Below, piece after piece: positions 3,736 through 8,021 of a stretch of 64,000 bases of DNA. How positions within the stretch are numbered: the stretch's first letter is position 1; every line of letters begins with the position of its first letter. A program made the position numbers and the translations under genes. Below the pieces are notes generated by a model. That model had not been told where the DNA came from, made no database searches, and was given only the letters and a program-made list of their open reading frames with translations. The stretch is from contig CP089276.1 in the NCBI GenBank assembly GCA_023920165.1, positions 4,464,001 through 4,528,000 on the forward strand, given 5' to 3'. This DNA comes from Curvularia clavata. Taxonomy: Eukaryota.

Positions 3736-5910
3736 CTAAACGCTGTTGACCTTCAAACCATCGACGCCGTTTGCGATACCGTCGGCCCCAAGGTCATTCT
3801 TCGGGCCGTTCTGATAATCGCGCGTGATTTCATCCAGCATACCCGCACTCGCCGCAACGAAGCCCAAGTAGGGCCTGCTTGGGTCCAAGACACGGGAGAG
3901 GTACTCTGGGTGGAATTGAACGCCGACAAACCAAGGGTGATCCTTGATCTCGATGACTTCCATGCGGACGCCGGCTTCATCTTTACCAACAAAGCTCAAA
4001 CCGCCCTTCTCGAGGGTTTCAATATAGTCGGGGTTGACTTCGTAGCGGTGACGGTGGCGTTCTAGGATTTCGCCTTTACCGGCATACAACGCACGGAGAC
4101 GAGACCATTCGCTGCCAGGCTGGAACAATGTTGGGCGGAGACCCAGACGCATCGACGCACCCATGGTGGTCTTGTCAACCTCTGGCATGAACATGATGAG
4201 CTTGTTCTGAGCCTCACCATTGAACTCCTCCGAGGTAGCATCCTTGATACCACAGACGTTGCGGGCATACTCAATAACAGCGATCTGCATACCCAGGCAA
4301 ACACCCAGGTACGGTTTCTTGTTCTCACGCGCCCAAGTGGCCGCTGCGATCATGCCCTCAGTCGCACGCTGACCGAAGCCACCAGGAACCAGAATGCCCG
4401 AGGCTTTGACAACCTCATGCCATGCATTATGGAATTTAGCAGGGTCTGACTGCTGACACTTTGGCTCCAGGTGATCCGAGTCGACCCAGCGAATGTCCAG
4501 CTTCTTCCTGCACCTCATCGTAGCGTGTTCCAACGCCTTGATGACGGAAAGGTATGAGTCTTGAAGCTCGACATACTTTCCGACAAGGGCAATCGTCACA
4601 GGGTCGTGATATCGTGTGTCGTGACCAGTAAGCGACTGCCATTGTGCCCAAGTATGGTTTCCTTTTTGCAACATTTGAGGAGAAATGTTGGCCTGGTCGA
4701 GGGCAAGGAACTGGCGAACCATGGGTATCAGCTTCTGCTGCTCCAGGAGCATGGGGACCTGGTAGATGGACGGCATGTCCCTGACCACAAGAACCTGTTC
4801 GTTCTCGACCTGGCAGAAATGGGCAATCTTTTCTACGGCAGAGGCATCGAGTTCGCGTTCGCAACGGCAGGCAATCTGGGATTGTTAGGCATGCATGCAA
4901 GCGCAGTAGCAGGGGTGTCTCTAAAAAGGCAAAAACATACCAAATCCGGAATCAGACCATTACTCCTCACCGCCTTGATTGCCTGTTGCGTAGGCTTTGT
5001 CTTTTGCTCTCCGTGAATGACCGGCACGTACGAAACATGGATCTGCATGAAGTTGTTCTTTCCCGCACGTCTCCTCAGCTGGCTCATGGCCTCAACAAAA
5101 GGCATGCTCTCAATATCACCAACAGTGCCACCCAATTCAATTATGCAGACATCAGGCTCCTCGCCCGAGTCATCGACCGGGATGCGTGCGACCCTCTGGA
5201 TCCATTCTTGAATTGCATCAGTGATGTGGGGTACGACTTGTACGGTTTTACCCAGGTAGTCGCCCTTGCGCTCGCGCTCAATGACGTGCTGGTAGATCTT
5301 GCCCGTGGTGATGTTGTTATCGCGTGTTAGAGTAATGTTGAGGTAACGCTCGTAGTTGCCGAGATCGAGGTCGACTTCACCGCCATCGGAGAGGACGAAG
5401 ACTTCGCCATGCCTATATAAAATTTAGTCTTCTGGTAGCATACCAGTGGGTCGTGCTGAGGCGTACTCCTTCGGATTCATAGTCCCCGCATCGACATTGA
5501 GGTACGGGTCGACCTTGATCGACGAGACGTGCTGAGCCATCAGCATGAGCCGTAGACGCGCCAATCTGCTGTACTTATCTTGAGACCAATAGTCTTGAGT
5601 AATAGACCCGTCGACGATGCTGTATCACGTCGATTAGCCCTTGTCTACTGCCAGATGCCTGATAAAGCGGGGTTTCGCAAAAGGCCTCCGCATAGCATTT
5701 CAGAAGCTCATGTCCTGATCGAGGCCAGATCGTTTCCTCCAAGGACATGCTGAGCCGCTTCTGCGAGTGCAATGGTGGTAGCACTTGTTCAGAAGATCTT
5801 ACCTATGATACCCTGTTTTTACGGATTAGTGGTGATCAAAGGCGCGGCTACCTGCAGCTTACCTTCCCCACGCCGCTGATGACGCCGCCAGACACGAGCA
5901 CGTACTTCAT
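3736..5910 (-). CDS. URA7: CTP synthase; exons 5910-5863, 5812-5803, 5619-5579, 5528-5467, 5412-4941, 4875-3736
   Basis: Spliced product reads [78 protein letters not shown]…GGTVGDIES. The glutaminase domain has [17 protein letters not shown] and QFHPE. Confidence 0.97.
5529..5578 (-). other. non-canonical AT-AC spliceosomal intron (intron 3 of CTP synthase)
   Basis: GGT CTC AAG | ATAAGTAC…GCTGAT…CAGCAC | GTC TCG TCG ATC AAG. Removing these 50 nt restores the conserved GLKVSSIK exactly. The nearby GT donors I tested give frameshifts. Confidence 0.8.
5640..5795 (-). ncRNA. candidate structured RNA element inside CTP synthase intron 2
   Basis: Nested stems CAGAAGC/GCTTCTG, CATGTCCT/AGGACATG and GAGG/CCTC (5763-5701). 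A second hairpin ATGC..GCGG/CCGC..GCAT. Alternative pairings of the 5' part. Confidence 0.5.
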
Positions 5911-6522: not shown

Positions 6523-8021
6523 TCACTCTCTTCGCCGCCTCTTAAACTCGTCTTCATCTGCGTTATCCTGCTCTTGGCTTGCTGTGAGTCGTTTACGTGC
6601 AAGTGCCTTCTCATTGCCCTTTTTGACTTGGATGTTGCAACCCTGCAGCTTCAATGCCCGGGTCAGAGCGCTACTCGGTCGCATACCGGGAAAGTCTTTG
6701 GCTGTGTAGACGGTGAAGACGTCGCTCAGGACTTCAGTCAAGATGGGCGAGAATCCTCCTACGTGCAGGTTCATAGGATCGATGCGCATAAGCACAAACC
6801 GAAGTCGGTATTTGCCGTGTGTGCGGCATGAAAGATCAGGGAAGCAGAAGAAACAGCCCTCGACATCGTGCTCGTCCTTGGCTACCGATGGCGAAGCCAC
6901 AAGCTGACCCATCAGCCGTCGTGTCGTGCGTCGGTCGGGTTGTATCAGTGCCGTTTCTTCGTTGGTCCCTTCGGCATTCCAAAGTGTACAGTGAACCACG
7001 TTGAGCGAGTAGCGCAGCTCTTCCTGTTCCGCAGCACCAGTTTTTGGGTCGGTCACTAGTAACTGGATGATGGGTGGAGGGTCAATTACCCTTCGGTCGC
7101 GTTCGCCAAATCCACACGCCCGGGCGGCAATGGGCTGTTGTCGTACGCGGAGCTCATAGTTGAGGTTGCTGCAAGTGGTCAGAAGATTCTTCACCGTGGT
7201 GTCCCCGGAAGCATGCACACTTACAGTTGCTCGTTGTAGACTGGCTGCGGTATGGAGCCTGGTAGTGGGACAGCCCGTGGTTGTTTTCGAGATGGGGGAG
7301 CAGCTTTCGAGGGCTCCGAGTAAGCAACCGGGCCCAAGGGTGCTCCAACGGAACCTCGATGGGATTGCGCATGTTGCTGGGAGCCTACGGATCCGCGGAA
7401 CGGTGTGCTGCTTGATGCGTAGCTAGGAGTATATGCAGGCGACGGGAGTGGAGGGTAAGCTCTTTGGTGCGATGACTCTACTGGGGAAGCAAGAGACGAA
7501 TACCCTTGTTCGGGATGCACTGCATGGCGTTGAAAGGGGCGATGCTCCTCATAGGAATATCGCTGTTCGGTCAGTCTCCGAGGACCTCTACTGTCGTATT
7601 CCGAGCGTGGCGAAATGGGAGGTCCGTATTGCCGAGGAGAATAGGGTGGATCGGATCTGGGTGGGGTATATGGGTTGGATGGTTGTAACAGCTTGTCGAC
7701 TGGTGCTGCTGCTGCAGCAGTTGGTGGTGGTGGCGGTGGTGGCCTTTGTGCTGAAGGAGGTTGTGGGTAATCATGTCGTGGAGGTAGTCCAGAATGGATC
7801 GAGGGTAGTTGATTGATGGGTGAACGGAAATGGTGATCCGGCCGGGGTGGTACAGCGTCCGGCGGAATCTCTAGCGGGGGCAGGCGACGATGGGCGTAGT
7901 CGAGAAAGCCTGGTGGGGAGAAGACGGGAGGTTTCTGAGTCTCGGTCATGTCTGGAGACGGTCGAGAAGCAGTTGACAGAGGGAGCGACGGGGGAGGAGG
8001 AAGAGGAGGTGGTTGGGACAT
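6523..8021 (-). CDS. velC: velvet-domain regulator, VelC-type (Pro-rich N-terminus, C-terminal velvet domain); intron 7224-7169
   Basis: YELRVRQQPIAARACGFGERDRRVIDPPPIIQL…FFCFPDLSCRTHGKYRLRF…SDVFTVYTAKDFPGMRPSSALTRALKLQG is the velvet signature. A GTAAGT..CAG intron joins the two ORFs in frame. The start codon is uncertain. Confidence 0.88.

Follow-up and report, generated by a model that had tools for sequence, protein, structure and literature searches.

A well-supported U2-type AT-AC intron in the CTP synthase gene of Curvularia clavata, removed exactly in RNA and apparently conserved in Pezizomycotina

The gene for cytidine triphosphate (CTP) synthase in Curvularia clavata lies on the minus strand of the stretch analyzed here (64,000 nucleotides [nt] of contig CP089276.1; hereafter the window), and its third intron has AT and AC at its ends where GT and AG are usual. 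This intron 3 is a genuine AT-AC intron and is removed exactly in RNA. It is very probably removed constitutively by the major, U2-dependent spliceosome and old in Pezizomycotina. Its classification as a new case of the known, very rare U2-type (type II) class of AT-AC introns is well supported.

Intron 3 (5578–5529, minus strand) comprises 50 nt, starting with ATAAGT and ending with CAGCAC, between an exon that ends in the residues GLK and an exon that starts with VSSIK. GCTGAT occupies intron positions 35–40, and a CAG is found 3 nt upstream of the end. All these features are as described in the original prediction, which had been made from the sequence alone and had called the intron obligatory for the reading frame. 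The latter claim is borne out: when intron 3 is retained, translation stops after 45 amino acids (aa), and its AT..AC removal together with that of the four GT-AG introns restores a coding sequence of 1773 nt (590 aa), in which the sole stop codon is terminal. The position of the cut is fixed, because the adjoining letters are not the same at the two ends, with 0 ambiguous letters at the joint. Nine frame-keeping alternatives with GT or GC at the start and AG at the end connect exon 3 to exon 4. Every one of them has a poor donor (GTCGAC, GTCTAT, GCAGAT, and GTCTAC are among them), and all nine delete or replace residues that are kept in every correct homologue. As judged from the sequence, the conserved GLK-VSSIK protein is obtained only by the AT-AC cut at 5578–5529. 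The use of the CAG 3 nt upstream as an AT-AG pair would yield the in-frame product GLKHVSSIK.

Public sequencing runs were examined over the gene as Logan contigs, which neither quantify levels nor reveal rare isoforms. In RNA contigs of two studies (X13 and X15), position 5579 is joined straight to 5528 with the 50 nt skipped, which is the junction that had been predicted. The ends at the joint 5528/5579 read GT..AT on the plus strand, corresponding to AT..AC on the gene strand. X15 is a root metatranscriptome that is on record as RNA, and its contig with the joint has a depth of 5.6. X13, which bears the organism label of the probable source, comes from a different study, and is backed as RNA by its contigs being spliced, provides a single 2060-nt contig (depth 64.8) that skips 4876–4940, 5412/13–5465/66, and 5529–5578. 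The canonical introns 1, 2, 4, and 5 are spliced in the same RNA contigs and serve as internal controls. Because of this splicing and because a 10-nt micro-exon is carried too, the X13 and X15 contigs behave as spliced mRNA. Across intron 3, the spliced form alone was assembled from X13, and introns 1–2 were also assembled in unspliced form, at a depth of 8.87 versus 78.3.

The genomic letters of the intron were confirmed independently of the window. X3, a DNA run under another organism label, covers all 2261 nt with a single contig; 19 differences to the window were counted, of which 0 are within 5529–5578, and no joint is present. X16, an oligo-dT metatranscriptome labeled as a tick metagenome, gave an unspliced contig (5505–5813) that has 0 differences to the window and spans introns 3 and 2; this contig may represent pre-mRNA or a DNA contamination. 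The identical intron letters in X3 and X16 agree with the original view that both terminal changes are real and not errors. Elsewhere in the CTP synthase gene, X16 also holds spliced pieces, but none of its contigs is spliced over intron 3. That sample contained the fungus or a strain nearly identical to it. In other parts of the gene, coverage by X15 and X16 has gaps, which were given no weight. As to sequence variation, 14 single-letter differences in intron 2 (5711–5787) are common to X3 and the unspliced X13 contig. Intron 3 and exons 3–4 show 0 differences in X3 and X13, although the sites are too few to claim special constraint.

The splice signals of intron 3 are of U2 type. ATAAGT matches a GTAAGT-type donor with A at +1 at 6/6 positions, whereas it matches the U12 donor motif at 3/8 positions. 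By the criterion in the available part of Sheth et al. (PMC1557818), the 5′ splice site agrees with the U2-type consensus except at +1. The donors of the other four introns in the gene are GTAAGC, GTAAGA, GTACGC, and GTATGT, and all four introns end with AG. The U12-type branch motif CCTTRAY is absent within intron 3, and the sole CTRAY is CTGAT, whose A precedes the intron end by 11 nt. The other four introns have branch-like motifs close to their ends as well (ACTAAT, GCTAAT, CTAAA, and CCTAAC), with a spacing that resembles that in intron 3. U12-type donor and branch motifs were found neither in the window intron nor in the introns of the metagenome loci L021 and L083 described below. Bartschat and Samuelsson (PMC2846911, available part) reported that Ascomycota, with Pezizomycotina among them, do not have U12 splicing, and Larue and Roy (PMC10639083, available part) reported that neither Ascomycota nor Basidiomycota have convincing minor introns. 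The original prediction had named both the U2-type signals and the loss of the minor spliceosome in ascomycetes, and it was right on the former and in line with these reports on the latter. Because minor small nuclear RNAs (snRNAs) and minor introns are reported absent from Ascomycota, we strongly infer from the sequence that intron 3 is removed by the major spliceosome.

Here, we propose how this intron may be spliced. The donor ATAAGT would pair with U1 and U6 as a fungal GTAAGT donor does, except at +1. CTGAT would serve as the branch site, at a distance of 11 nt to the 3′ end, and a non-Watson–Crick contact between the first A and the last C, in place of the usual G–G contact, would then permit the second catalytic step. 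That A as the first and C as the last nucleotide (A1/C-1) compensate for each other is established from mutant introns of yeast and human. The double change at this site is probably ancient, as introns with the same ends are found at the same codon boundary in other Pezizomycotina classes.

At the DNA level, a metagenome pattern scan returned at least 120 loci, but the scan pattern was loose and nearly all of them are intronless prokaryotic or other CTP synthases. Only L021, L083, L099, and L027 are fungal-looking among the matches listed. The motif K[VI]DPYxN[VI]DAGTM, at first taken as specific to fungi, occurs widely among CTP synthases encoded on long metagenome contigs without introns. 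L021 and L083 have AT-AC introns at the codon boundary between exon 3 and exon 4 of the window (Table 1), ending with TATGCAC and AACTAC, respectively, so that the comparison of orthologous introns suggested with the original prediction found the same ends at the same site. The nearest named protein to L021 is that of Calycina marina, a Leotiomycete (83%). After alignment, the introns of the window, L021, and L083 are 35–56% alike, whereas the flanking exons are 73–85% alike. The three introns share only their AT-AC ends and a CTGAY branch motif 9–12 nt from the end (11 nt in the window, 12 nt in L021, and 9 nt in L083). The AG located 3 nt upstream of the end in the window intron is absent from L021 and L083. 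L027 is yeast-like and has no introns at all.

Gene predictors that use only GT-AG must err at an AT-AC intron, and their errors at this site are informative. We examined 235 cluster representatives from two protein searches at the junction of exons 3 and 4. By a strict pattern, 52/235 are correct across the junction, and three more are correct by eye (P0080, P0120, and probably P0206). Thirty of the 235 models run from the intron into exon 4, and in these V[ST]SIK is preceded by H (23 models), Y (5), or N (2). These residues have NAY codons and thus imply an intron ending with AC (or AT) in that frame. Q, K, or E, which would be expected from an end in AG, precedes V[ST]SIK in 0/30 mis-built models. 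At the other side, 8/235 models run on past GLK with I (seven models) or M (one model), implying AT at the intron start. The named mis-built cases include Parastagonospora, Setomelanomma, Kalmusia (“GLK IS H VSSIK”), Westerdykella, Verruconis, and Phyllosticta, as well as Lachnellula (five species), Cadophora, Hyphodiscus, and Erysiphe. Trichophyton, Arthroderma, and Microsporum are mis-built cases in Eurotiomycetes, and others are Piccolia, Sarcosagium, Thelocarpon, Geoglossum, and Rhizina undulata (Pezizomycetes); several lichen fungi are among the mis-built cases. The model P0272 (Amylocarpus) reads “GLK IIVH VSSIK”.

The read-through open reading frame (ORF) of the window was also searched against 50% representatives, and 25 of the 26 matches were examined. 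Sixteen ORF-style read-outs enter exon 4 from non-exon sequence with H (11), Y (3), N (1), or Q (1). In P0246 and P0249, the whole intron is read through in frame, with I at its start and H at its end. There is some overlap with the earlier set, since P0236 resembles P0002 and P0248 resembles P0042, and P0253 was excluded because of its differing exon 4 start. The protein read-outs agree with the DNA cases and, as far as sequence comparison goes, point to an early origin of the AT-AC intron in Pezizomycotina. The intron is apparently old and conserved across the classes of this group.

Several points weigh against this interpretation. An NAY-type intron end is implied in 45/46 read-outs (the 30 models and the 16 ORF-style ones), but such read-outs do not tell AC from AT, and the counts are not independent of phylogeny. 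Conservation of AT-AC at the DNA level covers three lineages only. In the remaining read-out, the short ORF of P0254, exon 4 is preceded by Q (VSSIKIDPYMNIDAGTMRPKE), the residue expected from a canonical AG end, and at least one lineage may therefore have a canonical intron end; a protein search aimed at placing P0254 returned weak matches only. L099, one of the fungal-looking contigs, has no intron at the exon 3/exon 4 site. In L099 (at about positions 200–340), the intron 2 position is present, and the exon (…MNIDAGTMRPTE…) is similar to that of P0254. Taken together, P0254 and L099 suggest that some lineage may have lost the AT-AC intron or never acquired it. The spliceosome type assigned to intron 3 rests on motifs and the reported Ascomycota-wide absence of the minor machinery, and the RNA label of X13 is a guess only. 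A minor AT-AG form or a retained form of intron 3 may also be compatible with the contig data, considering the unspliced contig of X16.

Other explanations were weighed against constitutive removal by the major spliceosome. Slow splicing of an A1/C-1 intron might have been kept to throttle or regulate CTP synthase, for example by retention and a premature stop, and the original prediction had suggested such an inefficient, rate-limiting role. In the available part of PMC1557818, the G1A/G-1C pair is described as allowing the splicing of test introns from yeast and human, “although less efficiently”. The early stop upon retention, the X16 unspliced contig across intron 3, and the very long conservation of the AT-AC ends also fit regulation. 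However, intron 2 is likewise unspliced in the X16 contig, which may derive from DNA or from ordinary pre-mRNA, and the contrast in X13 between intron 3, assembled only in spliced form, and introns 1–2, also unspliced at about a tenth of the depth, leans weakly against a throttle, because contigs do not quantify. Conservation of both ends is expected even without a regulatory role because the single reversions (GT-AC and AT-AG) would be worse than the pair, and the interior of the intron is not conserved. A regulatory role is thus unsupported by these data, and we consider it unlikely. The original prediction also allowed for an AT-AG isoform with one extra His. The CAG at 5534–5532 would give the in-frame product GLK-H-VSSIK, and many gene predictors pick this acceptor, placing H before VSSIK. 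This form is found in no contig examined, though contigs drop rare variants; the orthologous introns of L021 and L083 lack an AG there, and all correct homologues lack the extra residue. A substantial AT-AG isoform is therefore very unlikely.

As to the origin and identity of the ends, AT-AC termini are typical of one subclass of U12-type introns (PMC1557818, available part), but the poor match of the donor to the U12 motif, the missing U12 branch motif with a U2-type CTGAT in its place, the same situation in L021 and L083, and the reported lack of minor snRNAs and minor introns in Ascomycota (PMC2846911 and PMC10639083, available parts) make removal of intron 3 by a minor spliceosome extremely improbable. 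A related idea is that the ends are a fossil of an ancestral fungal U12-type intron that was taken over by the major spliceosome upon the loss of the minor one in Dikarya. The terminal nucleotides would have been kept while the donor and branch motifs were remodeled; the ends themselves are what speaks for this scenario, which is distinctly improbable. If true, it would be a rare relic of minor introns in a phylum otherwise devoid of them. Finally, AT and AC might be sequencing or assembly errors, or the mRNA might use a nearby canonical GT-AG junction. Nothing was found in favor of this explanation, whose prior plausibility comes from the rarity of AT-AC in fungal annotations (PMC7072748), and its chance is negligible in view of the identical intron letters in the X3 and X16 contigs, the use of AT..AC in RNA contigs of two studies, the lack of an acceptable canonical alternative, and the orthologous introns with the same ends. 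The possibility of a stwintron (nested intron) was rejected, as 50 nt is too short and the RNA shows one clean excision.

U2-type AT-AC introns have been described in other systems. Sheth et al. (PMC1557818, available part) listed 24 of them in five genomes, and the same text states that U2 dependence was shown by experiment for the AT-AC introns of SCN4A and SCN5A, that the TAF2 AT-AC intron is shared by human and Drosophila, and that AT-AC introns in xylanase genes of filamentous fungi are a hypothesis only. The window intron resembles these animal type II introns (SCN4A/SCN5A and TAF2) in its AT-AC ends with an otherwise ordinary U2 donor, rarity, long-term conservation in orthologues, and, probably, A1/C-1 compensation. 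In contrast to them, it belongs to a fungal phylum without the minor spliceosome, is 50 nt long with a CTRAY branch motif near the 3′ end, and resides in a housekeeping metabolic gene, spread over several Pezizomycotina classes; U2 dependence is experimental for SCN4A/SCN5A, whereas we infer it for the window intron. Engineered G1A + G-1C introns of yeast and human have the same terminal pair and undergo both steps by the major spliceosome (PMC1557818, available part). Unlike these mutants, which are reported to splice less efficiently, the window intron is natural and kept by selection. U12-type AT-AC introns share the terminal dinucleotides, but their donor and branch motifs are not found in the window intron.

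In fungal annotations, AT-AC introns are much rarer than in those of animals and plants (Frey and Pucker, PMC7072748). RNA sequencing of Fusarium graminearum revealed two AT-AC introns, in FGSG_08743 and FGSG_10073 (PMC3577648, supplement file 4). In that study, seven genes with non-canonical sites (Figure 7A therein) were confirmed by Sanger sequencing, and primers for the confirmation of non-canonical sites are listed for FGSG_10073. These introns are also non-canonical AT-AC introns in an ascomycete, and that of FGSG_10073 is of similar size (52 nt), but they reside in other genes; the gene length of FGSG_10073 is 786 nt (PMC3577648), compared with 1.77 kb for CTP synthase. The possibility that FGSG_08743 or FGSG_10073 is a CTP synthase was rejected on gene length. 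Conservation across classes, as seen for the CTP synthase intron, is not reported for the F. graminearum or xylanase cases. In the literature searched, which omits most subscription journals, no published description of a CTP synthase AT-AC intron was found, and no mention of FGSG_10073 was found beyond PMC3577648.

The gene model is summarized in Table 1. The product is identical at 574/590 residues to P0001, a cluster representative named for Bipolaris sorokiniana ND90Pr, and residues 1–80 are all identical. Homologues found in the protein search carry CTP synthase names, and they indicate that the host is a Dothideomycete-like fungus of Pleosporales, similar to Bipolaris. Both domains of CTP synthase were found in order: CTP_synth_N (PF06418; E = 6e-71, with 239 bits on exon 5 and 47 bits at the start of exon 6) is followed by a class I GATase (PF00117; E = 5e-37, 128 bits on exon 6). 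The micro-exon appears in the X13 and X15 RNA contigs as seven letters between 5621 and 5862, and the shared flanking G and AG complete GGTATCATAG. In L083 and L099, exon 1 and the 10 nt of the micro-exon are uninterrupted, so that intron 1 is probably a later, lineage-specific insertion. Several deposited models from Pleosporales pass directly from GVGK to (H/N)VSSIK, lacking the micro-exon and exon 3. Upstream of the CTP synthase gene on the same strand, a gene for a protein with a Velvet-factor domain (PF11754, E = 1e-61) is located at 6526–7422, and a proline-rich ORF extends this gene region to about 8075 on the minus strand.

Table 1. CTP synthase gene in the window and AT-AC introns at the same site in two metagenome loci.
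Feature	Position	Strand	Description and evidence
CTP synthase gene (URA7-like)	3736..5910	-	ATG at 5910, stop 3736–3738; six exons, 590 aa
Exon 1	5863..5910	-	Sequence and splicing by coordinates; covered by RNA contigs X13, X15
Intron 1	5813..5862	-	50 nt, GTAAGC...AACAG, branch ACTAAT; skipped in RNA contigs of X13, X15
Exon 2 (micro-exon)	5803..5812	-	10 nt, GGTATCATAG (G I I A-); RNA contigs X13, X15; frame requires micro-exon
Intron 2	5620..5802	-	183 nt, GTAAGA...ATACAG, branch GCTAAT; sequence, contigs, splicing by coordinates
Exon 3	5579..5619	-	End ...GGT CTC AAG (GLK); sequence, contigs, splicing by coordinates
Intron 3 (AT-AC)	5529..5578	-	50 nt; RNA joint 5528/5579 in X13, X15; frame
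5′ splice site of intron 3	5573..5578	-	ATAAGT; U2-type fungal donor with A at +1
Putative branch site of intron 3	5539..5543	-	CTGAT, branch A at 5540, 11 nt before intron end; sole CTRAY in intron 3
3′ end of intron 3	5529..5534	-	CAGCAC; used AC 5530–5529; unused CAG 5534–5532, 3 nt upstream
Exon 4	5467..5528	-	62 nt, start GTC TCG TCG ATC AAG (VSSIK); sequence, contigs, splicing by coordinates
Intron 4	5413..5466	-	54 nt, GTACGC...TATAG; joint in X13, X15
Exon 5	4941..5412	-	Contigs, splicing, Pfam
Intron 5	4876..4940	-	65 nt, GTATGT...CCCAG; joint in X13, X16
Exon 6 with stop codon	3736..4875	-	ORF, homologues, splicing, Pfam
AT-AC intron of L021			Upstream exon end ...GGCTTGAAG; intron ATATGT...GGCTGACCTCCTATGCAC, 56 nt; downstream exon start GTCACTTCGATCAAG
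AT-AC intron of L083			Upstream exon end ...GGGCTTAAG; intron ATAAGT...GGCTGACGAAACTAC, 52 nt; downstream exon start GTCTCTTCGATCAAG

The AT-AC intron has consequences for gene annotation. Among the cluster representatives of at least 500 aa, only 54/142 carry the proper join of exons 3 and 4, a count that includes fragments and ORF-style calls, and many named GenBank models are truncated or have invented residues exactly at this site. A rule for AT-AC at this site, together with the 10-nt micro-exon in Pleosporales, would mend the model of an essential gene in many fungal genomes. The distribution, with AT-AC in most lineages, none in L099 and L027, and possibly a canonical end in P0254, could be used for dating the double change by genome alignment. 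A natural A1/C-1 intron in organisms that have only the major spliceosome is also a ready system for asking how such ends are tolerated and why the pair persists.

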